Positions 12,782-25,345 of a DNA stretch of 64,000 bases are shown here, piece by piece; the stretch's first letter is position 1, and each line of letters starts with the position of its first letter. Source of the stretch: Pseudomonadota bacterium. Lineage in GTDB: Bacteria; Pseudomonadota; Gammaproteobacteria; Pseudomonadales; Halieaceae. A program made the translations under genes and the position numbers. The notes beneath the pieces are model-generated. The model was not told the origin of the DNA and ran no database searches. It was given only the letters and a program-made list of their open reading frames with translations. The stretch spans positions 1-64,000 of the forward strand of contig JBCCPL010000009.1 of the NCBI GenBank assembly GCA_039111155.1, given 5' to 3'.

Positions 12782-13351
12782 TCATGAGTTTGACAAGCAC
12801 GCGCTTGTCAGTCGCGCATACAGGCCCGCAACTAACACTCCACTCATTACACCCGCAAGATGCATTTCAAATGAAATGCGTGAATCCGAGGGCACAAGAC
12901 CCCATACCATGCCGCCGTAGAAGAAAACTACGACGACGGCCATGAGCACGCTTTTCAATTTCCGGTCTAACCAGGCAATGCTGATCAGCATCCCCCACAG
13001 TCCATAAACCCAACCGCTTGCACCCAAGTGCGCCGCTTCGCGACCAAAAAGCCAGACCAAGCCACCGCTAATGGCGATGATGCAGGCGCTGCCGAACAGG
13101 AATAGAAGTCTCGATCGGAGAGCTACCATGGATCCAAATACGAGCAGACCCGTGCAGTTGCTCATCAAGTGTGATGAGTTCGCATGTACGAATGGCGCGC
13201 TGAAGATCGTAAACCAACGGCTGTCTGAACGCGGGAGGACACCGTAGAGTTCTGGGCGCAGACCTACCCCGATTGCTGCGGCATGAGCGAGGACCTCTAG
13301 CAATACAACGGCGGTAACCAAGGTTAGTGCCTTCGCCAATCGCCGCAGCAT
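12782..13351 (-). CDS. rhomboid-family intramembrane serine protease (last gene of the giant-ATPase operon)
   Basis: Textbook rhomboid motifs: 'FVHANSSHLMSN' (TM2 H/N), 'GASGWVYGL' (GxSG catalytic Ser, TM4), 'HLAGVMSGVLVAGLY' (catalytic His, TM6). Start at 13351 abuts the stop of the upstream giant gene (13352). Confidence 0.85.
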   Translation of the reverse strand: MLRRLAKALTLVTAVVLLEVLAHAAAIGVGLRPELYGVLPRSDSRWFTIFSAPFVHANSSHLMSNCTGLLVFGSMVALRSRLLFLFGSACIIAISGGLVWLFGREAAHLGASGWVYGLWGMLISIAWLDRKLKSVLMAVVVVFFYGGMVWGLVPSDSRISFEMHLAGVMSGVLVAGLYARLTSACLSNS

Positions 13352-16300
13352 CTAACTACCTGGTGGAGACTCGCCCGCGTCGTGCAGCTCGTCTTGTAGG
13401 CTACGGAGTTGTTGCGAAACCTCGACCATTTTTTCGTGAGTGCGTAGATCGATATCGAGTTTTTTATCCATGTTGCGAATCAGGGGCATAATGCTGTGCT
13501 CTAGAGAATCGGCAAGCGCATTTAAGACCTTATCAATGCCCGGTACGGGTCTGTTCTCGACGGTCACAGCGGGTGCATTCTCCTGTATCGCGGTCACCAA
13601 ACGATCTGCCAATTCCTCAACGCCGGCACGACCCTGCTCATTTTGCTCCGTGGATGACGCAGAAGCCTTTGTTGCCAGTGCGTCTACTCCATTCACCAGG
13701 TCAACGAGCTGCGCCACAACTTTATTGCCCACATCGGCATCGTCGCCGCCGATGGCTTTGTTACGCAAAAAATCCGCCTTAATCTGTTCCCAGCGCTGCC
13801 TCTCCTCCGCGCTCATCACACCGCGCAATTCTTGCAGCTTTAGAAGATTCGCCTCCGCTCCAGTGGTCAAAAGCTGTGCTTCGCCGAGATAGTGATCTTC
13901 GATCATTTGCTGAAGCTCTTCGTCGTTCATCACGGAGGAAATCTTCTCCGTCATTTTGTTCATGTTGCGGTAGCTGCCCTGTAGTTTGAACGGTGGCTCA
14001 ACTCTATACGCGTCCTCTTGGCCAGCTGATTCGATATATTGCTGATTGATCTTCAAGACGATGTCCTGAACTACGAACATCTTGCGCAGCACAGCGGTGA
14101 TTTCATTGATTTCGGCGGCGCTGTAGGCATGGCTGAGATCAGAGGTTGCGACCTCTGCGCCTTTAGCGATAGCAACGAGTTTGTAGACGTCGCCCATCTC
14201 CCGCGTCGCGAGCGGTGCCAGAGCAGTATTGGAAGTCAGGGCGTTTTCGACGTAGCTGAGCGCAAACTGCTCTTCCATTCCACCAAGAATGTCGCCCAAA
14301 TTGTAGATATCTGCGCGGTTGGCCAGCATATCGGGAACTTTGAACGTCTCACCGCTTTCTGTGTAGGGATTACCTGCCATGACTACACAGAACTTTTTTC
14401 CACGCATGTCGTAGGTCTTGCTGACACCCTTCCAAACGCCTTCGATGCGTCGCGTGCCATCACAGAGGGATATGAACTTCTGTAGAAACTCCGGATGGGT
14501 ATGCTGAATATCGTCTAGGTACAGCATTACGTTGGAGCCCATTTCAAGTGCAAGATTGAGTTTTTCAAGCTCACTGGAAGCAGTCGAATTTGGCGCTTGT
14601 AGCGGATCGAGGGACTTAACGTCGTGGCCAAGTGCGGGACAATTGATCTTCATGAAAACAAGACCCAGACGACTGGCGACGTATTCCATCAAGGTTGTCT
14701 TACCGTAACCCGGTGGTGAAATCATCATCAGCAGGCCCATGAGGTCCGTTCTCTTGCTCTGGCCGAAAGTACCCATCTGCTTCGCTAGGTTGTCCCCGAT
14801 GAGTGGTAGATATGACTCATTAATCAAGCGATTGCGAACGAACGAACTCAGTGGTCGGGCCCGGAACTCCTCAAGGCGTAGATTTTTACGAGCGAAAGAA
14901 ACTGCCGACCGACGCTGTTCAAGATAGCTTTGATATGCGGGCACAACCTCGGTTCTATGCTGTTCCAAACGCAATAGGAACGTATCAATGGCAAACTCGA
15001 GAGACTGATCTTTAATCGTGGGATGTTCCCCAAGGAGTCCGCCGACTCGCAGCTCAGTTTCAACCGAGGTAGCCCGCCGGGTCAGGGTCTTTTCCGCATT
15101 GATGTGTGCTACCGCCTCAGGAATATAATGCTCGTAGTGAGACAGTCCTTTGCTCTTGACCATGGCAGTAAGCCACGCCGTGCTCAATTGCCATCGCTGG
15201 GCAGGCCAGCCTTTCATTTGCCGCAGCGCGTGCTTTAGCTGTCGCCAGGTCCGCTCGCCAACGGCCGTTGTCAGTTCTGTGACCAACGATTGCGCATACT
15301 TACTGCCAATAAACTCAAGATGCTCACGACTCAACTCTTCGACCAAGTATTGAGCAGCCCGCTGCACCTGCAGCGTCGAGACGGGAATCGGATGCAGATC
15401 GAGAAAGTCCTGAAGCGCTCGCTGCACTTCTTGGGACAACAGGCTTAGGGCGTCGCTACGTGCAAATGTTGACTTCATCTGTGCGCCGGATTGCGCACGC
15501 TCACGCCAGGTCTCGTGCGAAAGGCGCTGCACCGGGGTGCCGGGATCGATTTCGACAATCGTCTCCGTGGCATGCAGGTTCGCCCAAAACACCTGCGCAA
15601 GACCGCGGCTGGCCGGGTCAAAGGTCAGCAGGTCGCAGCGCTGCATGGCCGAGGTGACTTCGTCAAGAATCAGGAGCGCATCGTGATCATGAACGCCCTT
15701 TACGTATCCTTCTTTGTAGTGCTTGGTGACAAATCTCTGAATTAGAGCCTCAAGTTTCTTGCGGTCGACTGGCGCATTGTCTGCGGTCGCGTTCGCAAAG
15801 TCTTGTCCCCGTTGCAGCTCCACAAGGACCGTGTACGCAAGGTATTCGCTCCGGTATACCGTCGGACCCTCGGACTCAAGGGTCATTTCCCAGTAGTCGC
15901 TAAGCGCATCTAGACTCGGGTCGTCGATTGGCTCAAAGAAATCAGTTCCTGTGAGATGAAGGTCGAGACGACCCTCCCGCGGGATGATACTGAGATCAAG
16001 CTCCTGTGTATTGACGGAGAAACGATGCCGGGGCCCAAGCCGAATGACGGCTCCATCGTCCTCGAAAATATCGCTCTTATCACGAAGCGAACGGTGTGCC
16101 AGCTCGCTGGCGGCTTTGAATCGAGCCTCTATGTCATCGGCTTTTACCGCACTCCCTAAATCGCGGAGCTGCTCGCAGAAATCTCCAACTTTAAGCACTA
16201 GGGGGTCAGATGCAAAATAGGTGTTCAATGCATCCTGATCGGCCAGAGTAAGAGAGCGCTTTTCGATATTTACCAGTGTCCGCTCTGCTGCATCGGCAAT

Positions 16301-18619
16301 CGACTGTGATTTACGTTGACGCTCATCGAGCAATTGCTGCTTACGCGTCTCGAAGGACTCGTAGACTTCCTCCCGCTTTGCTACAAGTTCACCGATGAAC
16401 TGCTCATGCTCTCCAAACTGGCCCTCCAGATCCTCTAACTGAACCAAAAGGCGCGACAGAAGCTCATCACAGCGCTTCGGCGTGTCCGATTTACTCAAAT
16501 TGTTAGCCACGCTCTGTGAAAACAGCTTGAACTGGGCACTGAACTGAGCGGTCGCCTCCTCAGACCCCAACGATTTGGCTTTGAGCCTCGCTGTTGCGCG
16601 AATACGATTAAGCAGCGCGTAGACTTGAGAGATCGAATCGATGATCTCCGTATGCAGAGTTGCATCGTCTACACTCAGGGTACTGACAAGCTCCGAAAGC
16701 AAGTCAAGATCGGAGGATGTAGCTTCTAGGCTTTCGAGTACCGGCTTAAGCTCCGACATCGTTTTTGCGGTCTCGAGCGCAGCTTCAAAACTCTGAGCCT
16801 TGCTTTCGTAAGGAGTCAGTGCGTCTGCAGAGGACAGAAAGGCTGTGGTTTTCGCACTCAGTTCCTGCTCGACAGCCTCTAGATCGACACTCATCAGTTT
16901 TACCTGATTAATGTCTATGTAACGAAGCTCTTGGATTGTCACCAGATGACCGCGCTGGCGGCGCAGCTTACCCAGAGTAGTTACGTACTGCTCTGCGGAG
17001 TCCCAACTCTCTGGCCGCACCGACTGCAGGAGAGCCTTCTGTTCTGTCCGCGCATCGCGCAATGCGATTTCTGACTGCTCACGAATTGCGTGGACTTTTT
17101 CAAATTCATCGATGACAAGATCGGCGGTTTCAGCGATTTGCCGAGCTAGTAGGCCCACCGCAGCTACTTCATCGTCCGCCAACCAAAAATGATCATCAAA
17201 CAACTTGCTAGCAATACGCCTTAGTTCTTCATAATGCCTTGTTGATACGGTTTCGTTGTCAATATGGCGACACATGGCGTAGAGATCCGATACGCCGCGG
17301 ACCAGTTCAGCATTACCGATCCGAGAGTAAAAGGTCTGTCCGATTGACTTGTATGCCGCATGTTCCTCACTGGAAAACGGTGTATGCCAGAGCTGCATTG
17401 GATGCACGCGGGTAGCTTCTTCTTCAGCTGAAAAGATGACCAGGCCGCCATCAGCGGCAAGCGCATAGCCGTGGCAGACGATTGGATTGGCGAGCTCTTT
17501 CCGAATCAGATTGTAGGCCAACAATGCCGACGTGCCCGACTCCGGTGCGTAAAAAACATACAACACGTCCTCACCATTGGGTGAACGAACGCGTTGACGA
17601 AACTTTAAGTTGGGTACGAAATCGCTGAGCGACTTGTATTCACCGGTCTCTAGAAAATAACCGCCCGGAAAAATGACACCGTGATCATCGGGAAGCTGCA
17701 CACACGATGCGCCGATGGCATCAACCCGCGTGACATTCTCAGTCAGTGAATTGAAAATGAGAAAACGCCACTGTTGTTCTCTGTAAGGGCGAACCTTTAG
17801 CAAGATCAGATTGCCAACCAGCGCGTAAGCAAGCTGTACGTCGTCAAGGGACTGGGTAGCATCCTCCACCGGCTCGCTGTAGATGCCGAGACCGTCTTCT
17901 GTATTGTTTTCAACTTTGACCGTTAATGTGCCGTCCAAGGTTTCAACGAATACCCGGTCGCGAACATTGATGTGCGCGTGGCGGCCGTGGACAAAGTCAT
18001 CACGACTAGTTTCAATCCAATCGAAGTCAAAGGCGGGTGGCGGCCTGATATCACGCTCACCGCGGTTATCGATGTATTCAACACGAGAACCGTCGGGGGA
18101 AAGGGTCCAGCGAAACACACGTATATCGCTAAGGCGCTCACCGATCTGGAAGCCAGCAAGCAGCTTACCGTCGCGAACCGTCAGTTCGATCAACTGCGTG
18201 TGCTTGTAATAACGATATAGTTCGTCGAAGTCGTTAACGAACCTTTGCTCCGCTAAAAAACTCCCAACCAGTGGTACGGCCGTCATATCCACACTGTCAG
18301 TGTCAGTGTTGACGTCGAACAGTGCGAAGACATCGGCGACCCGGGTTTCTCTCTTGAGCCCGATGAAAACGTTATAGCCAAACAGTAGGTGCCCGCCTAC
18401 CTGAACGATGTCGCGCGCTACACAGTTGTTTTCGGTACGCACGCGGGTACGACCGACAACCCGCATGTCCGATGCTCCGAATTCATCTACTCGGGCCTGA
18501 TTCAGGGAGGCTATTTGTGCCTGAAGGTCCTGCGACTGCATATCCAGTCGCTTGCGGATGACTTCATAGGCGCCCCCCTGCGCGACGGCATCATCGACTT
18601 GTGACTCTTCCTGGCTCAC
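13352..18619 (-). CDS. giant (1755 aa) multidomain P-loop/AAA+-like ATPase with long coiled-coil regions; function unknown
   Basis: Uninterrupted 5.27-kb ORF. Walker A 'MISPPGYGKTTL' at about residue 1300 (nt ~14693-14740) and Walker B-like 'VMLYLDDIQH' about 65 aa later. N-terminal ~450 aa beta-rich. Residues ~500-1000 are strongly helical, E/L/A/Q/S-rich coiled-coil-like; C-terminal ~300 aa helical. Codon usage matches its neighbours. Confidence 0.75.
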   Translation of the reverse strand: MSQEESQVDDAVAQGGAYEVIRKRLDMQSQDLQAQIASLNQARVDEFGASDMRVVGRTRVRTENNCVARDIVQVGGHLLFGYNVFIGLKRETRVADVFALFDVNTDTDSVDMTAVPLVGSFLAEQRFVNDFDELYRYYKHTQLIELTVRDGKLLAGFQIGERLSDIRVFRWTLSPDGSRVEYIDNRGERDIRPPPAFDFDWIETSRDDFVHGRHAHINVRDRVFVETLDGTLTVKVENNTEDGLGIYSEPVEDATQSLDDVQLAYALVGNLILLKVRPYREQQWRFLIFNSLTENVTRVDAIGASCVQLPDDHGVIFPGGYFLETGEYKSLSDFVPNLKFRQRVRSPNGEDVLYVFYAPESGTSALLAYNLIRKELANPIVCHGYALAADGGLVIFSAEEEATRVHPMQLWHTPFSSEEHAAYKSIGQTFYSRIGNAELVRGVSDLYAMCRHIDNETVSTRHYEELRRIASKLFDDHFWLADDEVAAVGLLARQIAETADLVIDEFEKVHAIREQSEIALRDARTEQKALLQSVRPESWDSAEQYVTTLGKLRRQRGHLVTIQELRYIDINQVKLMSVDLEAVEQELSAKTTAFLSSADALTPYESKAQSFEAALETAKTMSELKPVLESLEATSSDLDLLSELVSTLSVDDATLHTEIIDSISQVYALLNRIRATARLKAKSLGSEEATAQFSAQFKLFSQSVANNLSKSDTPKRCDELLSRLLVQLEDLEGQFGEHEQFIGELVAKREEVYESFETRKQQLLDERQRKSQSIADAAERTLVNIEKRSLTLADQDALNTYFASDPLVLKVGDFCEQLRDLGSAVKADDIEARFKAASELAHRSLRDKSDIFEDDGAVIRLGPRHRFSVNTQELDLSIIPREGRLDLHLTGTDFFEPIDDPSLDALSDYWEMTLESEGPTVYRSEYLAYTVLVELQRGQDFANATADNAPVDRKKLEALIQRFVTKHYKEGYVKGVHDHDALLILDEVTSAMQRCDLLTFDPASRGLAQVFWANLHATETIVEIDPGTPVQRLSHETWRERAQSGAQMKSTFARSDALSLLSQEVQRALQDFLDLHPIPVSTLQVQRAAQYLVEELSREHLEFIGSKYAQSLVTELTTAVGERTWRQLKHALRQMKGWPAQRWQLSTAWLTAMVKSKGLSHYEHYIPEAVAHINAEKTLTRRATSVETELRVGGLLGEHPTIKDQSLEFAIDTFLLRLEQHRTEVVPAYQSYLEQRRSAVSFARKNLRLEEFRARPLSSFVRNRLINESYLPLIGDNLAKQMGTFGQSKRTDLMGLLMMISPPGYGKTTLMEYVASRLGLVFMKINCPALGHDVKSLDPLQAPNSTASSELEKLNLALEMGSNVMLYLDDIQHTHPEFLQKFISLCDGTRRIEGVWKGVSKTYDMRGKKFCVVMAGNPYTESGETFKVPDMLANRADIYNLGDILGGMEEQFALSYVENALTSNTALAPLATREMGDVYKLVAIAKGAEVATSDLSHAYSAAEINEITAVLRKMFVVQDIVLKINQQYIESAGQEDAYRVEPPFKLQGSYRNMNKMTEKISSVMNDEELQQMIEDHYLGEAQLLTTGAEANLLKLQELRGVMSAEERQRWEQIKADFLRNKAIGGDDADVGNKVVAQLVDLVNGVDALATKASASSTEQNEQGRAGVEELADRLVTAIQENAPAVTVENRPVPGIDKVLNALADSLEHSIMPLIRNMDKKLDIDLRTHEKMVEVSQQLRSLQDELHDAGESPPGS

Positions 18620-18647: not shown

Positions 18648-20534
18648 TCAAATCGAATCGCGCTCTGTCGCTACACTCGCCTCGGGGCGAGCTTCCAAAA
18701 CCCGGTCAATAAGGGCAGAGATCGTGCCACTCTTCTCCGCAAGCCCATCCACCGCTTTCCCGATGGATAGTGACTTGGCGAAGTTGTCGAAGAAGTGCTC
18801 TTCACCACCCACAATATCGATCTTTGCTTTTTCAAGCGCAGTTGCCAGAACCTCCGCATTCTCGCGAGCTATTTCTTTACCGGCTTCGATAGACGCCAAC
18901 GCCTCCCTAAGGGCTGTCTCCAGACCCATGCGGTACTCCTCGTGAGCCCGGGCTTCCACGCTCATGCTGTTCATTGCGTCGAACTTATCGGTTAGGCCGT
19001 CGGCCTCGGCCTTGAACTGCTCTCGGGTAACCTCGGCCTGGGCCTTGCCGGTTCCGAGAAGAGCATCCGCCTCGGCATCGCCCTTCGCCTTGATCACAGT
19101 TGCCTCGGCAAGGCCTTCTTTTTCTAGCGCATCGGCTTTTGCGGCCTGCACTCGTGCCTCGGCGAGCCCTGTTGCGGCTTCCTCCGCCTGTGTACCCTCG
19201 GCGAGCTGCTTCTTTGCATCGGCCTCTTTTGCGGCTGCATCCAACTCAGCCTGAGCGATCGTTGTGATTTCCACTGCCTTGTGGCGAGCGGCGGCCTCCT
19301 CGGCTTCTGCAGCTTTCACTTGCTTGGTTTTTTCCTCCTCTGCCTGCGCTTCCGCCGCAAGAACCTGGGTCTGCTTAAGGCGATCCGCCTCGGAAACTTC
19401 ACGAACCTCCTTAATGTTCTCTTCCTCGATTGCTACGGTCTTGTCGACGGCGACCCTTTCACGAATGACGTTGGCGATTTCCTTCTTTTCAACCTCAACG
19501 GCTTTCTCCGCCTCTATCTTTTGCAGCTCGACCTCTCGCTCCCGGGATACAACTTCCAGATCGCGTGCTCGCGTCACCTTCTCCTGCTCGATAGCCACTG
19601 CTCGCTGACGATTCTGCTCCGCCACCTCGATCTCCCGCTGCTGATTCTCGGTCTGTACGGCAAGTTCCTGCGCTACCTGAATCGCAGTAGTTTCAGCCCG
19701 TTGCCGCTCTTCTTCTTGTACTTTTTTAGTCTCCGCTTCTTCACGGGCACGAATGGTCGCTATTTCACGCTCTTGCTTGGCTTCCGCGTCCGCTTGCTGG
19801 CGCTCCAGTTCGAGCATGGCCTCGACGGTCTCCACGTTCTTCTTCTTTATCGCCAACTCTTCGTCACGTTCGAGATCATTTGTGCGGACGTTCTGTGCTG
19901 CCGTAAGTTCTGTGATTTTCTTGATGCCTTCTGCATCTAGAATATTGGTGGGATCGAGAGAGCCTTTAGGAGTCTGCTCAAGATAATCGATGGCAACATC
20001 CTCGAGTACGTAGCCGTTCAGATCGTCTCCGATCACCTGGATAATCTTTTCTCGGAAGTCCTGACGATTTTCGAACAACTGCACAAAGTCGATCTGCTTG
20101 CCTACAGTTTTCAGCGCTTCAGAGAACTTGGCATTGAACAGCTCGTTCACAGCGACCCTGTCTGATGCACGGCTCGCTCCGATCGATTTTGCGACCTTTA
20201 AAACATCGTCCGCAGTCTCGTTCACCCGTAAGTAGAACGCGACAACGATGTCAGCGCGCATATTGTCTTTACAGATCAGTCCATCCGTTCCCCGCCGATC
20301 TATCTCCAGAGTGATCAGTGAGATACGCATTAGCTCTTTCTTGTAAATGATTGGGTAAACAAGTGCGCCCGTGAAATGAACCTTCGGACGCGAACTCATA
20401 TCGTTCACAATCAGCGCAGTCCCCTGCTCGACCTTCACATAGAAAGCCTTAAAGATGGCTGCAAATCCCATCAGGATGACAAAGAAAATGCCTACGCCAG
20501 TCACAATAGGCATTAACACAGAAAGGTCAGCCAT
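18648..20534 (-). CDS. flotillin-family SPFH/band-7 protein (YqiK-like)
   Basis: N-terminal TM helix, SPFH core ('VKVEQGTALIVNDMSS...', 'RADIVVAFYLRV'), then ~250 aa of E/A/K/Q-rich flotillin-type coiled coil; 628 aa. Confidence 0.9.
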   Translation of the reverse strand: MADLSVLMPIVTGVGIFFVILMGFAAIFKAFYVKVEQGTALIVNDMSSRPKVHFTGALVYPIIYKKELMRISLITLEIDRRGTDGLICKDNMRADIVVAFYLRVNETADDVLKVAKSIGASRASDRVAVNELFNAKFSEALKTVGKQIDFVQLFENRQDFREKIIQVIGDDLNGYVLEDVAIDYLEQTPKGSLDPTNILDAEGIKKITELTAAQNVRTNDLERDEELAIKKKNVETVEAMLELERQQADAEAKQEREIATIRAREEAETKKVQEEERQRAETTAIQVAQELAVQTENQQREIEVAEQNRQRAVAIEQEKVTRARDLEVVSREREVELQKIEAEKAVEVEKKEIANVIRERVAVDKTVAIEEENIKEVREVSEADRLKQTQVLAAEAQAEEEKTKQVKAAEAEEAAARHKAVEITTIAQAELDAAAKEADAKKQLAEGTQAEEAATGLAEARVQAAKADALEKEGLAEATVIKAKGDAEADALLGTGKAQAEVTREQFKAEADGLTDKFDAMNSMSVEARAHEEYRMGLETALREALASIEAGKEIARENAEVLATALEKAKIDIVGGEEHFFDNFAKSLSIGKAVDGLAEKSGTISALIDRVLEARPEASVATERDSI

Positions 20535-20592: not shown

Positions 20593-21282
20593 TTAGCCAC
20601 CACGAAACTCATCTTCCGAGATAACCCGATACACGCCTTCATCTTTGCGATGTTCAAGCAGCACTACCCGATCACCGCGGGTATAGGTCGCGTCACCGGT
20701 AGCACGAACCTTCAGGATCAGGCCTGCGCCGCCGTCTTCGAGTAGAGCTTCGCCAAATTCTGCATTGACAACAGACGTGCGTACGACCGCCGACTGTCCG
20801 AGTACCTTCTTGACGGTTTGTTGAAGCGCTTTTTTAAACAGCGGACGCATTGGTTTGATCACTTGCGCAGTGATCATCGTTGCCACGTAAAGCGCCAAGC
20901 CAAGGATTGGAATACCCGCACCGAAACGCAGAAAACCTTCCGGCAGGGGCCGAAGAAAAAAGTGGCTGAGATAATAGGAGATCAACCACCCAAACAGCGC
21001 GATACAGGACACGATGATCGTTACGGGGACACCGGTCAGCCCGAAGCGCAAGAGCAGGCCAGCCAAAACATCCGGATTGGATAGCCCCTGATCTGCAGCT
21101 CCAAGCACGCTATCTGTCTCGGGCAGGTCAAAGTCGAGAAACTCGATATCTACGAGCCCAAGAACTGCGATCGCCCAGTAGAGCAGTACCACACCGAGAA
21201 GGACGGTAAAGACAATCGTCGGAAAAGAAGCAATCGTCTGGTAGAACGGGTTCATACCTTCAGTCAGAAAAATCGCGAACAT
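20593..21282 (-). CDS. YqiJ/NfeD-like inner-membrane protein (flotillin operon partner)
   Basis: Polytopic membrane N-half and soluble beta-rich C-half ('VVRTSVVNAEFGEALLEDGGAGLILKVRATGDATYTRGDRVVLLE'), resembling the NfeD/YqiJ OB-fold tail. Positioned immediately upstream of the flotillin gene, as in yqiJK-type pairs. Confidence 0.6.
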   Translation of the reverse strand: MFAIFLTEGMNPFYQTIASFPTIVFTVLLGVVLLYWAIAVLGLVDIEFLDFDLPETDSVLGAADQGLSNPDVLAGLLLRFGLTGVPVTIIVSCIALFGWLISYYLSHFFLRPLPEGFLRFGAGIPILGLALYVATMITAQVIKPMRPLFKKALQQTVKKVLGQSAVVRTSVVNAEFGEALLEDGGAGLILKVRATGDATYTRGDRVVLLEHRKDEGVYRVISEDEFRGG

Positions 21283-21355: not shown

Positions 21356-22042
21356 CTACTGTTTTGCCCTGAGACGGTCCAGCACCTCATCGGCGCTCGC
21401 GCCTGACGGCGCAATTCCCGCCTGCTCCAATTTGGTCTGTAGAGTTTCACTGGAGCTCTCATCGGCCAGATCGCGGGCCGCGTTCATCCTCGCCGCATTC
21501 AGCGCCTGCTTCTCCTTGATGCGCTCCAACGAATCCATCGCGGTACGCATCTTTGAGTTAGAACCACTATGACGCTCGGCAACAGCGGCTTGTGCGCGCT
21601 GTACGTTTTCTGTGGCTTTGACTGTATCCACCTGCTGCTTGATGCGTTTCAAATTCTGTTCGGTTTGATTGATCGCCGCGCGTAAATCATCGGCCTGCTT
21701 TTTGTAACCCGCAACGGACTCCCGCTCGTGGGTAAGCTGGTTTTCCATATCTGCGATTTTCTCAGCGACATCCCGCGCTAAAGCAGTATCACCCTTGTCG
21801 AGAGCCTGAATGGCATAGCCTTCGTGCTCCTCGATCTTGGCTACCAAACTCTCCGATTTCTCTTCCGCAAGCTTCTGGTGAGCAAGTATTTCTGCCAGTC
21901 CGTCCCGCGATAGCTTTAATTCTTCTGCTGCGTCTCGAACCTCCTGGTCGAGAATTCTCAGGGCCTGAGAATCCACGATCGCCTCTCCCGCTTCATTCAC
22001 ACCACCACGAAGCGCCGTCATCATTTTTGCCCAGATATTCAT
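21356..22042 (-). CDS. PspA/IM30-family protein (bacterial ESCRT-III homologue; YjfJ-like)
   Basis: 228-aa all-helical protein. N-terminus 'MNIWAKMMTALRGGVNEAGEAIVDSQALRILDQEVRDAAEELKLSRDGLAEILAHQKLAEEK' matches the PspA/IM30 helix-0/helix-1 layout. No pspBC or pspF nearby. Confidence 0.8.
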   Translation of the reverse strand: MNIWAKMMTALRGGVNEAGEAIVDSQALRILDQEVRDAAEELKLSRDGLAEILAHQKLAEEKSESLVAKIEEHEGYAIQALDKGDTALARDVAEKIADMENQLTHERESVAGYKKQADDLRAAINQTEQNLKRIKQQVDTVKATENVQRAQAAVAERHSGSNSKMRTAMDSLERIKEKQALNAARMNAARDLADESSSETLQTKLEQAGIAPSGASADEVLDRLRAKQ

Positions 22043-22060: not shown

Positions 22061-22690
22061 TTAGACGGCCTCTGCCGTAACGTCGAGAAACTCCATATAG
22101 GCTTGTGTCGCCTGCAATACATTGCTCGCTAGCACTTCAATCTCAAGCACGACATTCTGCAGCTTGGATGCGGCACTCAATGCACCGAACATTTGGTAGA
22201 CCTCATCATCATCGCTGATTCTGTCGAGACTGATCGTTGAAAGGGGAAAGTACTTGTGTGTTCGAAGCACAGCATCGTTGAACGCTGCGACATCTACCAC
22301 GTCACTGGCTGGCCAGAGCACCGACTCAGCAATGATCTGCTCCCCCGAGACGGTGAGAAAAATCGGTAGATCCCCGTATTCGGTCATGACGATATGCAGT
22401 GATGCATCCACACCATCAATGAGTTCGATTCTCGCGCGCCCGGTAGTTGTCATCTCGTGATCGCTGAGCGCCTCATATAGGCTTTTTGTACTCCAAAAAT
22501 CCACCTTCTCACTCATGCTTACACCTCCTTCCGGTTTGAGCTGATCACGGTCCTCACGCAAAAGCTTCTCTATCCGCAACAATTCCCTCGAGGTCTCGGG
22601 GCGAATCCAGACTTCTTTTTTCACTAAGCCTTTTTGGCGTAACCGCTTGCGGTATTCGCGTTGATAATGCGCTGAAGATTTGATCACCAT
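22061..22690 (-). CDS. fusion of an N-terminal ribbon-helix-helix-like DNA-binding module with a DUF2170 (YjfI-like) domain
   Basis: From Met at 22690: 'MVIKSSAHYQREYRKRLRQKGLVKKEVWIRPETSRELLRIEKLLRE' (basic beta-strand then helix, RHH/CopG-like), followed by ~150 aa resembling the YjfI/DUF2170 partner of YjfJ-type PspA. The longest ORF extends to 22801, but that extension overlaps the palindromic promoter region. Confidence 0.5.
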   Translation of the reverse strand: MVIKSSAHYQREYRKRLRQKGLVKKEVWIRPETSRELLRIEKLLREDRDQLKPEGGVSMSEKVDFWSTKSLYEALSDHEMTTTGRARIELIDGVDASLHIVMTEYGDLPIFLTVSGEQIIAESVLWPASDVVDVAAFNDAVLRTHKYFPLSTISLDRISDDDEVYQMFGALSAASKLQNVVLEIEVLASNVLQATQAYMEFLDVTAEAV

Positions 22691-22707
22691 GGATGCAGCG
22701 TAGCATG

Positions 22708-22740
22708 TTACATGTAAGATTAAAATGATATTACATGTAA
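22708..22740 (-). promoter_or_regulatory. pair of perfect TTACATGTAA palindromes (putative operator) overlapping the operon promoter
   Basis: TTACATGTAA at 22708-22717 and 22731-22740 (centres 23 bp apart, AT-rich spacer), 18-50 nt upstream of the ATG at 22690. Further ACATGT-core half-sites at 23015-23023 and 23050-23055. Confidence 0.45.
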
Positions 22741-23426
22741 TAGTTTGAAAGGATAATTGAACAAGCCTGAGTGGCGTTACACCCGACGCGCATGGACGCA
22801 TGGATTTGTGGCTTCCATAAGCGCCTGATTGCCGGAGTTCAGGTCATTCCTTGAGCCTTACTCTGAGTCTTCGGAGCGTTAAGCCGGGAATTGCCTTTGA
22901 TCCCAGATCTTAAGAAACCCACATCGATGGATTGGCATTGAAGACCCGCGCCCTGCGCTCGGTATGGTATCGGTTCGCACAGAAAATCACCGAGATACAA
23001 AGATTTCTCTCTATTACATGTTCCCGGCGAGACGCGGGTAGACGCCTGCACATGTAGCTGCTTCTACTGAGTTCGCTAAGCGAACCTTGATAAACAACGC
23101 TTCACCGACTCAGTGGTAATCGGGCAAGCGAGTGAGTAGACAGTTAACGCTTCGACGAAAACCGCTGGTTTGCGGTTCGTCGAGAGGCGAATCGGACGTA
23201 GCGATAGCCGCAGGTCAAAGAAAGTCTGATCATGATCACCCGAAGCATTCCAAACAGGGCCGCATCGAGCGGCATAGAGACAGGCTGCGAGGGACTAAAT
23301 CCCGCCCTATGAAGACCACAGATTTTTGACGGTTGAGTGAAAAAGCACTCTTTAGAGTTATAGAAAGCAATTCATCAGGGCAGCGATTGCAAACTGAAAC
23401 AATTAAGTCGAGACGAGATCGGCGCA

Positions 23427-23816
23427 CTAACCCAACGCGACGGAGGCAACCAGGGCAATCAGGCCGACTAGAAAAGCCGCGTGCTCAATGAAAGCTAGCG
23501 TGTCGAACCGGATCCAATCCTGCCACTTGTTTTCGTAGATGCTCTCAGTCAGTTCTATGGTCTTTCCATCCTTGGCGACATTCTGTATTGCGGCTGGGAT
23601 GGCCCCGACCAGTAACGTCGCGGCAATTACTGATATCAGTAACGCCACTACAGCAGTGATCAACAAGCGTCCCGGCCATGTCTCAATGCTAAAGACAGCG
23701 CTTTTGGCTATCGTGATACCGACAGCCGACAACGTTTGAATCGAAATCGCCCATTTGCTCCAGTCGGCTAGACTGTTTAGCGCTTCGATTCTTCGTTTCT
23801 CTATATCGTCTGCCAT
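23427..23816 (-). CDS. hypothetical small membrane protein (129 aa)
   Basis: Three to four predicted TM helices; no motif recognised. Confidence 0.4.
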   Translation of the reverse strand: MADDIEKRRIEALNSLADWSKWAISIQTLSAVGITIAKSAVFSIETWPGRLLITAVVALLISVIAATLLVGAIPAAIQNVAKDGKTIELTESIYENKWQDWIRFDTLAFIEHAAFLVGLIALVASVALG

Positions 23817-24449: not shown

Positions 24450-25001
24450 ATGCGTGATGTTCAAAAGCACTATGAGGACGGTCCCGAAGCGTTGATCGTC
24501 AGCCTGGCGACGCGCGGTGATCGCGCGGCATTCAGTGAACTGGTACGCCGCCGCCAGGTATGGATACGCGGACTGTTTCGTCGCTTCTGCAATGAACCGA
24601 CACTTGCGGACGACTTGTCCCAGCGGGTTTTCCTAAAAATGTGGAAGCAAATCCGCTCCCTAAAGCATCCCGAACGATTCGCAGGCTGGTTAAAACGAAT
24701 CGCGATTAACGAATGGATAGACCATCAACGAAAATATGGATCAGATTGGGATGAAAGCTTTGACGAAGACGCGCAATCGACGACCATGCCCTCCCCGTCC
24801 ACGGCGATCGACCTGAACTTTGCGTTGTCCGAACTACCACCGCAGGTTCGGACCTGCATGGTTCTGGCCTACCATGAGTGCATGACTCATCCAGAGATTG
24901 TAGAGGCGACAGGCTTGCCTGCGGGCACCGTTAAATCTCACATACGTCGGGGTAGTGCTCGCTTGCGCGAACGGTTGAAAGACTACGAGGTAACTTCATG
25001 A
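24450..25001 (+). CDS. ECF (sigma-70 family group IV) RNA polymerase sigma factor
   Basis: Region 2 ('FSELVRRRQVWIRGLFRRF', 'WLKRIAINEWIDHQRK') and region 4 HTH ('LAYHECMTHPEIVEATGLPAGTVKSHIRRGSARLRERL'). Confidence 0.85.
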   Translation: MRDVQKHYEDGPEALIVSLATRGDRAAFSELVRRRQVWIRGLFRRFCNEPTLADDLSQRVFLKMWKQIRSLKHPERFAGWLKRIAINEWIDHQRKYGSDWDESFDEDAQSTTMPSPSTAIDLNFALSELPPQVRTCMVLAYHECMTHPEIVEATGLPAGTVKSHIRRGSARLRERLKDYEVTS

Positions 25002-25345
25002 GGGACGAGCTGGATCCTGACCTGTTATCACTCTTTGAAGAGCAGCAGCCGATACCTGGCAGCACCGACTTCACCGCGTGTGTGATGGCGGGGGTCGACC
25101 GGCGGCGCATCGGTTTTCGTGCGCTTCAGCTGGGGATTGTTATTCTACTGATCGCGCTGGAGCTCGTTTTCGAATCTCCGATCAGTCAGTCAATGGGAGC
25201 CCTCAATTCCGCAATGAAAAGCTCTGTATTAGAACTTGAGGGCGACTGGATCTCATTCATCCTGGAACCGGTGAACTCCGTAGCTGGTGTGTTAGGCATG
25301 GTGCTGTTGGGCGTTCATTTTTTGATGCGACGTTTCCTTCGCTAA
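24998..25345 (+). CDS. putative anti-sigma factor (single-pass membrane protein)
   Basis: ATGA overlap with the sigma gene; one TM helix (LQLGIVILLIALELVF); typical position and size of an ECF anti-sigma. Confidence 0.45.
   Translation: MRDELDPDLLSLFEEQQPIPGSTDFTACVMAGVDRRRIGFRALQLGIVILLIALELVFESPISQSMGALNSAMKSSVLELEGDWISFILEPVNSVAGVLGMVLLGVHFLMRRFLR

Follow-up and report, generated by a model that had tools for sequence, protein, structure and literature searches.

The stretch of DNA considered here (in the following, the window) comprises 64,000 nucleotides of contig JBCCPL010000009.1 of assembly GCA_039111155.1, from a member of the Halieaceae (Gammaproteobacteria), and carries on its minus strand, at 22061-22690, the ortholog of bacA (PA3732) of Pseudomonas aeruginosa, the first gene of a membrane-stress operon that also encodes a PspA-like protein. 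On this strand an open reading frame (ORF) runs from 22801 to 22061; within it an in-frame ATG at 22690 opens with MVIKSSAHYQREYRKRLRQKGLVKKEVWIRPETSRELLRIEKLLRE, a second in-frame ATG at 22516, with GGAGG ahead of it, opens with MSEKVDFW, and two palindromes lie upstream of the first ATG, all at the positions given in the original prediction made for this DNA. The long product, starting at 22690, is most likely an autorepressor of the bacA-F operon that would act through the two palindromes, and a short product is probably made from the internal start besides the long one. The features of the gene and its promoter are the following:

22061..22690, minus strand: bacA long form, 209 aa, with N-terminal basic module, linker and DUF2170 domain (NF050185)
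22556..22690, minus strand: N-terminal module, aa 1-45, proposed DNA-binding domain (conservation, codon pattern, AlphaFold2, weak family matches)
22517..22555, minus strand: variable disordered linker, aa 46-58 (AlphaFold2 per-residue confidence, pLDDT, and variation among homologs)
22085..22495, minus strand: DUF2170/CesT-like domain, residues 66-202 from the 22690 start (PF09938 E 3e-50; PDB 8q8o E 1e-42)
22524..22528, minus strand: internal Shine-Dalgarno (SD) motif GGAGG, 7 nt before the internal ATG (SD core in homologs)
22061..22516, minus strand: predicted short isoform, 151 aa, DUF2170 only (Met59, NCBI call, 8q8o)
22690..22690, minus strand: predicted transcription start, the A of the start codon (-10 spacing, no SD, PA14 ortholog)
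22697..22702, minus strand: -10 hexamer TACGCT (TAnnnT), ending 6 nt before the ATG (positional scan)
22708..22717, no strand: proximal operator TTACATGTAA, in the -35/-10 spacer (fixed position across promoters)
22719..22724, minus strand: -35-like hexamer TTTAAT, 3/6 matches (positional scan)
22731..22740, no strand: distal operator TTACATGTAA, just upstream of the -35 (also in P. aeruginosa)

The protein belongs to the BacA family on three counts, namely, a match above the cut-off (300 bits, curated) of NF050185, the NCBIfam equivalog 'biofilm formation regulator BacA', which covers residues 1-205 with model positions 1-205 of 206 at 303.1 bits; a DUF2170/CesT-like C-terminus; and the place of its gene at the head of an operon for PspA-like (PspA_IM30, the next gene), membrane, flotillin-like and giant AAA+ proteins. 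The predicted fusion of an N-terminal module to a DUF2170 domain is borne out, since the family model extends over both parts; residues 1-58 alone match model positions 1-50 with an E-value of 5e-20, and over 100 homologs of ~208 aa align along the whole query (100% coverage). In the NCBI annotation of the same genome the protein appears as a 151-aa 'MAG: YjfI family protein' (P0001), which starts at the internal Met and lacks the conserved 58-residue N-terminus, as do the classical PA14/PAO1 annotation of PA3732 and the construct crystallized in 8q8o. An ATG at 22801 was also considered as the start and rejected, because it lies upstream of the promoter elements and because homologs begin at MxxKSS.

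BacA (PA3732/PA14_16140) is encoded by the first gene of the P. aeruginosa bacABCDEF 'biofilm-associated cluster' (Mace 2008; Wallart 2024), the deletion of which affects biofilm formation, swarming, rhamnolipid production and virulence. In a bacA mutant of this species the levels of BacB-F are raised 6-13 fold, an effect that the authors attribute to protein-protein regulation, with no mention of a DNA-binding domain (PMC10948618). The DUF2170/CesT-like domain of BacA is a dimer both in the crystal and in solution, and a BacA-BacB interaction has been predicted with AlphaFold2 and reported by the authors as unpublished data. The gene family, the operon and the negative effect of BacA on the operon are, in other words, already known; no description of the N-terminal module, of the operators, of the leaderless start or of a second isoform was found in the open-access literature on BacA.

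Residues 1-45 are far better conserved than the rest of the protein. Among 23 diverse sequences, 17 of 50 aligned N-terminal positions are invariant, all of them within the first 45, and residues 46-58 differ in both sequence and length among homologs, the reading frame remaining open in every homolog despite the insertions and deletions in the linker. In 36 genes, the entropy in codons 4-45 is 0.66, 0.40 and 1.39 at codon positions 1, 2 and 3, respectively, and the codon differences amount to 11,017 synonymous and 7,057 non-synonymous ones. Variation at the third position together with the synonymous excess argues for selection on a protein-coding sequence rather than on an RNA leader and, to judge from this pattern, the N-terminal module is a translated and strongly conserved domain.

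This much of the original proposal, which had likened the N-terminus to the ribbon-helix-helix (RHH) repressors, stands; the RHH label fits only loosely. AlphaFold2, run on the monomer with alignments of 84 sequences (full protein) and 23 sequences (module), places a helix at residues 6-19, an extended stretch at 20-30 and a second helix at 31-45/49, followed by the disordered linker, with pLDDT values of ~65-80 (moderate confidence) in the module and below 50 for residues 51-62. In this model the strand is succeeded by a single helix, at variance with the strand-helix-helix topology of the RHH (CopG/Arc/MetJ) proteins, and neither an RHH family profile in Pfam above threshold nor a solved RHH structure was matched. 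Palindromic operators, as bound by the antiparallel beta-ribbon of RHH dimers in the major groove, are present. A profile search of 1.84 billion representative proteins returned 188 matches to the module, many of which are standalone proteins of 44-60 aa that end directly after the second helix, so that the ~45-residue helix-strand-helix unit appears to be the whole domain.

Known families are reached only by weak matches. The NF041430 model ('plasmid repression protein F') is matched below threshold by 23 of 26 BacA N-termini (best E 7e-6), with module residues 6-46 aligned to its positions 17-57; the window protein scores 14.6 bits, and all matches are below 30 bits versus a cut-off of 100, which speaks for distant homology only and not for membership. 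Similarly, 22 of the 26 N-termini weakly match PF11455 ('MazE-like antitoxin'), but the window protein reaches 14.5 bits and the best standalone relative 20.7 against a gathering score of 22 bits, and the gene downstream is PspA-like and not a toxin gene, so that these proteins are not placed in that family either. The standalone relatives also match NF041430 and PF11455 weakly and below threshold, and one of them matches the LexA-regulated YbfE (PRK11675), again below threshold. When the module profile was compared with PDB sequences only chance-level matches were obtained, and searches by sequence and by fold found no solved structure related to it. A fitting description of the module is that of a small basic domain of putative DNA-binding function, related to RHH proteins but not canonical, its similarities pointing to a distant relationship with the plasmid repressor F and MazE-like families only.

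The standalone relatives (P0300-P0390, metagenomic, 44-60 aa) form a family of their own without a solved structure and without an above-threshold Pfam family. With these proteins as queries, tblastn found 'hypothetical protein' genes on small plasmids only; one of them, found on small mobilizable plasmids of enterobacteria, encodes a 53-aa 'hypothetical protein' (L039:2477-2638) next to a RelE/ParE toxin-antitoxin pair.

The promoter follows a common layout, with a TTGACA-like hexamer between the two operators and a TAnnnT hexamer after the proximal copy. In all 42 promoters compared TAnnnT is present and ends 4-7 nt before the ATG (6-7 nt in 40 of them), and a -35 hexamer with at least 4/6 matches to TTGACA is found 16-18 nt upstream of the -10 in 38; an SD-like motif precedes the first ATG in only one of the 42. 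The P. aeruginosa locus (L038) reads TATTACATGTGAgctgTTGAAAtcTTACATGTGAtctcgTAGTGTgagtccATG, that is, the same two operators, -35, -10 and ATG. A transcription map of PA14 is available, which puts the start of the PA14_16140-16150 unit at 1374599 and that of the annotated gene at 1374776, with a 5' untranslated region (UTR) of 177 nt (Wurtzel 2012, Table S3; PMC3460626). As in P. aeruginosa the internal ATG, with GGAGG ahead of it, lies 177 nt downstream of the long-form ATG, and as the distance to the end of bacB is 1330 nt both from the start in the PA14 map and from the long-form ATG in the retrieved locus, the mapped start coincides with the A that opens the long-form AUG. This start is downstream of the palindromes, but the mRNA begins with the RHH-like coding segment and does not leave it untranslated, which was the outcome that the original prediction had named as fatal to it. 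The bacA mRNA is leaderless in PA14, directly from the published map, and would be so in the window on account of the promoter geometry, the start being placed on the A of the ATG because the -10 ends 6 nt before it and no SD precedes it.

A promoter scan tool reported no minus-strand sigma-70 site in the window, because the -35 scores only 3/6. As for sigma-54, no site with up to three mismatches to the consensus TGGCAC-N5-TTGCW is present on either strand of 22311-23520, no genome-wide search for a PspF-type activator having been made. The sigma-54 independence put forward for this system is in keeping with these results, and the sigma-70-type promoter replaces the putative RpoN site that Mace et al. 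had proposed for the bac operon.

Both palindromes are perfect and lie 18-50 nt upstream of the ATG at 22690, in the promoter as surmised and, more precisely, in the spacer and upstream of the -35. No other site in the window is within one mismatch of TTACATGTAA. Taken alone, the window does not make the pair significant, since 23 of 100 shuffles reach two or more matches; its significance comes from comparative counts across loci. To this end 36 related loci were fetched, which span Cellvibrionaceae, Pseudomonas, Oleispira, Sedimenticola, Methylococcales, Woeseia, Granulosicoccaceae, Arenicella, Nevskia and others and, with the window, give 37 promoters. In the 36 loci, 74 sites with at most one mismatch to TTACATGTAA are found in 3,960 bp of promoter-proximal DNA versus 3 in the remaining 217,978 bp, and most promoters contain two or three copies of the element. 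The search for the palindrome in other genomes, suggested at the outset, is therefore rewarded: the exact ACATGT core is present in 35 of the 37 promoters and in 31 of these 35 its first base lies 24-26 nt ahead of the ATG. In L017, L024 and L027 one or two bases of the proximal copy deviate, and L011 keeps an exact proximal copy that was missed by the scan. Neighbouring operators are mostly 21-25 bp apart (mode 22-24), i.e. about two helical turns as predicted, and the family consensus is aTYACATGTRAt. Seven further loci, which encode divergent BacA subfamilies, show the same promoter plan, and the TTACATGTAA pair is kept at fixed positions in about 40 genomes of many gammaproteobacterial orders. 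On the strength of this conservation the pair can be regarded as a conserved operator-like element within a sigma-70-type promoter; as would be expected of an autoregulatory operator, it overlaps the core promoter of its own gene, the occupancy by BacA being an inference.

Two more ACATGT half-sites farther upstream had been included in the original prediction. They are indeed present, at 23016 and 23050, with 2 and 3 mismatches to the 10-mer (the better site being 23014-23023), but the window contains 11 sites with up to two mismatches versus 12.3 expected by chance, and they were rejected as evidence. A span of 340 bp holds four of the nine ACATGT cores of the window. The site TATTACATGTTC (23012-23023), with one perfect half, lies 283 bp upstream of the distal operator and could be an auxiliary (looping) site or nothing.

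BacA is considered the operator-binding protein because the operator is nearly confined to bacA promoters and the bac genes are its only conserved neighbours, and a repressor because the bacA mutation raises BacB-F and because the module distantly resembles a known family of small autorepressors. Autorepression of the bacA-F operon by long BacA is, on these grounds, the reading held here with good, if not full, confidence. Several points weigh against it. One weak point is the fold of the module, which is of moderate confidence and non-canonical, and DNA binding by the module is deduced rather than directly seen. The covariation between protein and operator that accompanies changes in the N-terminal helix is only suggestive: the variant operator ATTTCATGTAGT goes with Asn at position 9 in two proteins whose loci are possibly close relatives, the operator variant of L034 is ATTTCAGGAAAG, and changes of residue 10 do not track the operator. 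The TTTAAT of the window is a weaker -35 than the TTGACA of most homologs, and the margin by which the protein exceeds the NF050185 cut-off is narrow. Finally, the PA14 bacA mutant is a transposon mutant, in which read-through or polarity could contribute to the rise of BacB-F.

In the linker, G55 and M59 are at least 90% conserved amid variable sequence. Of 31 genes, 27 have an SD core (GGAG, GAGG or AGGA) ahead of the internal ATG, at a spacing of 5-9 nt, and the linker Gly codon is GGA in 28/32 cases versus 33/287 of the Gly codons elsewhere in the same genes. Such constraint at a synonymous site speaks for a ribosome-binding site that functions within the gene and, with it, for a DUF2170-only isoform. 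The P. aeruginosa protein of PDB 8q8o (146 aa) aligns to residues 65-204, and the ~16 kDa at which PAO1/PA14 annotate PA3732 corresponds to the short form. With these indications from the sequences, the short form is probably made from the internal start besides the long form; the internal Met, which had been raised as an alternative to 22690, apparently serves for a second initiation rather than as the true start in its place. Rather unlikely, though it is the best of the competing explanations, is that the internal GGAG and ATG are a leftover of two formerly separate genes (a regulator gene and yjfI) or a pause site, and that the long form only is produced. It would account for the seven loci without the internal Met or its SD (L021, L024-L027, L030 and L031, belonging to Granulosicoccaceae, Woeseia and two Methylococcales), which also count against the two-isoform part of the reading and make the short form common but not universal; it is opposed by the use of GGA at the linker Gly (11% elsewhere), by the conservation of Met59, by the appropriate SD-ATG spacing and by a passage of PMC4066749 that, citing Brencic and Lory 2009, counts PA3732 among the direct targets of RsmA, with several sites near its SD.

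The internal ribosome-binding region is GGA-rich, with GGAGAAGGAGGAAGACATG in P. aeruginosa (L038 3160-3180) and CCGGAAGGAGGTGTAAGCATG here (22514-22535). If the citation of PA3732 in that passage is followed, RsmA may specifically gate the short isoform in Pseudomonas.

That the palindromes serve another, unlinked transcription factor, and that the module does something else, such as binding a protein or RNA or, in the manner of an antitoxin, a partner, is improbable. The module has no solved relative, its Pfam/NCBIfam matches outside BacA are sub-threshold, the covariation with the operator is weak and the binding of BacA to the operator is a prediction, all of which would suit such an arrangement. 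Yet the operator is near-exclusive to bacA promoters (74 versus 3 sites in 218 kb of flanks) and is kept across many gammaproteobacterial orders with the bac genes as sole conserved neighbours; no conserved upstream gene that might encode an alternative regulator was found, the largest upstream gene cluster being common to 4/35 loci; the module is basic and related to a plasmid autorepressor family; and the bacA mutant de-represses the operon. Leaderless mRNAs are often translated inefficiently and, with the 151-aa NCBI call, the ~16 kDa annotation of PA3732, the 146-aa crystal and the strong SD before the internal ATG, this might favour the view that only the short DUF2170 protein is made, the upstream 174 nt being a conserved untranslated 5' leader, a view that is hardly credible given the coding substitution pattern of the 45 codons, the frame open in every homolog, the standalone 44-60 aa proteins with the same domain and the PA14 transcript that begins exactly at the AUG.

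Autorepression by long BacA could proceed as follows. The sigma-70-type promoter (-35 at 22719-22724, -10 at 22697-22702) would fire at the A of the ATG at 22690 to yield a leaderless mRNA, from which long BacA (209 aa) would be translated at a low level. A long BacA dimer, formed via the CesT-like DUF2170 domain or the module itself, would bind both palindromes (aTTACATGTAAt) on the same face of the DNA, dimerization through the CesT-like domain providing cooperativity, and the bound protein would occlude RNA polymerase. From the internal GGAG and ATG the 151-aa DUF2170-only protein would be made, predicted not to bind DNA, probably a chaperone-like partner of the PspA-like BacB, which may tune repression through mixed dimers with the long form or by competition for BacB. 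The signal would probably come via binding of BacB to the DUF2170 domain, by analogy with PspA-PspF, membrane stress drawing BacB to the membrane and being thereby passed on to the promoter; these signalling steps are suggested by analogy with PspA-PspF, with the co-repression by RHH antitoxins and their toxins and with the Tn5 transposase/inhibitor couple. In its most elaborate version, which is tentative and judged less likely than autorepression as such, one ORF would act as a two-isoform switch, in which scarce long BacA represses via TTACATGTAA and abundant short BacA chaperones BacB and sets the level of repression, with gating by RsmA in Pseudomonas.

Among known systems the closest is P. 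aeruginosa BacA itself, the ortholog, which shares the operon order, the operators, -35, -10 and leaderless ATG, the internal GGAGG and ATG and the negative control, and differs by a protein identity of ~49% and by the weaker -35 of the window; in the literature, it is a 16-kDa DUF2170 protein with regulation through protein-protein contacts and a putative RpoN site. RHH repressors with a C-terminal domain (NikR, the CopG/ParD/MazE-like antitoxins, YbfE) have in common with long BacA, as proposed here, a short dimeric N-terminal DNA reader, a C-terminal partner domain, palindromes in their own promoter and the logic of autorepression, but the module is here helix-strand-helix, no toxin gene is present and the partner domain is of type III secretion chaperone-like fold. 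The NF041430 model presumably corresponds to the 68-aa F repressor of RSF1010. Like the module, protein F is small and basic and contains this helix-strand-helix stretch. It autoregulates the RSF1010 promoter P4, the promoter of its own operon (PMC2200642). Unlike the module described here, which is fused to a CesT-like domain and chromosomally encoded, it occurs on IncQ plasmids as a protein in its own right of ~68 aa. The E. coli PspF-PspA and YjfI-YjfJ pairs are similar in that a PspA-family protein is encoded beside, and predicted to bind, a regulator of its own operon, and YjfI shares the DUF2170 domain; PspF-PspA differs by its sigma-54 promoter and enhancer-binding ATPase, neither of which is seen here, and by an activator instead of the proposed repressor. 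To our knowledge, E. coli YjfI (133 aa) is without the N-terminal module. Leaderless repressor mRNAs are known for lambda cI, transcribed from PRM, and for tetR of Tn1721, and the Tn5 transposase/inhibitor system comprises an N-terminally truncated isoform that lacks the DNA-binding part. These cases resemble bacA, as proposed here, in having a repressor made from an AUG-starting mRNA or a second in-frame start that yields a product without the DNA-binding N-terminus, by analogy only and with no sequence relationship.

Downstream of bacA, on the same strand, lie the other genes of the operon:

21356..22042, minus strand: bacB-like PspA/IM30 gene (PF04012 E 1e-45; syntenic in all loci)
20593..21282, minus strand: bacC-like membrane protein (by position only; no Pfam match)
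18648..20534, minus strand: bacD-like large membrane protein, coiled-coil-rich (by position; no Pfam match)
13352..18619, minus strand: bacE-like giant DUF3686/AAA+ ATPase, 1755 aa (PF12458 E 2e-193, plus DUF7902 and AAA domains)
12782..13351, minus strand: rhomboid-family membrane protein, last gene, at the bacF position (PF01694 E 4e-19)

An operon class with CesT-like, PspA, band-7/flotillin, AAA+ and YqiJ proteins has been described by Ravi et al. (PMC11237479). The bacC-like protein is equated with their YqiJ/YuaF-type protein with three transmembrane segments by operon position, and the bacD-like protein with their band-7/flotillin-type protein by position and coiled-coil-rich sequence. 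The bacABCD synteny is conserved across loci: bacC has syntenic homologs in 34/38, most of the others having short downstream flanks, and bacD homologs are 72-87% identical in most related loci and 64% in the divergent L034. The gene for the rhomboid-family intramembrane protease adjoins the stop codon of the DUF3686/AAA+ gene and is placed at bacF (PA3727) by position only. In PA14, a separate start at 1376533, 129 nt upstream of PA14_16180 (bacD), is listed in the same Table S3 (Wurtzel 2012; PMC3460626), and the downstream half of the bac operon may have its own promoter.

On the other side, the bacA promoter and the gene that lies next to it upstream (23427-23816) are unusually far apart, with ~700 bp (22741-23426) between them as compared with ~300 bp in P. 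aeruginosa; the whole gap upstream of bacA measures 735 bp. No convincing ORF and no sigma-54 site were found within 22741-23426, and a search of 22400-23600 with Rfam revealed no known RNA element. On the opposite strand, ~1.7 kb upstream of bacA, 24450-25345 (plus strand) contains two adjacent ORFs of 183 aa and 115 aa that, by eye, look like an extracytoplasmic function (ECF)-type sigma factor followed by a small membrane anti-sigma-like protein.

BacA has so far been a 'possible regulator' without a mechanism, studied and crystallized as the short 16-kDa form. Both the annotation of this genome and the classical ones of PA14/PAO1 are corrected by the long-form start, and the analysis offers a specific mechanism in which long BacA, with its likely DNA-binding module, acts on operators in a leaderless sigma-70 promoter next to a probable second isoform, with direct consequences for the experimentally studied P. 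aeruginosa bac system. It also points to a family of ~45-aa helix-strand-helix proteins, standalone and fused, without a solved structure. Regulation in the widespread PspA-flotillin-AAA+ operon class is given a logic that needs neither PspF nor sigma-54. Were the two-isoform switch to be true, a single gene, bacA, would match the PspA-PspF partner switch without recourse to sigma-54, and membrane stress would be read directly at the promoter.

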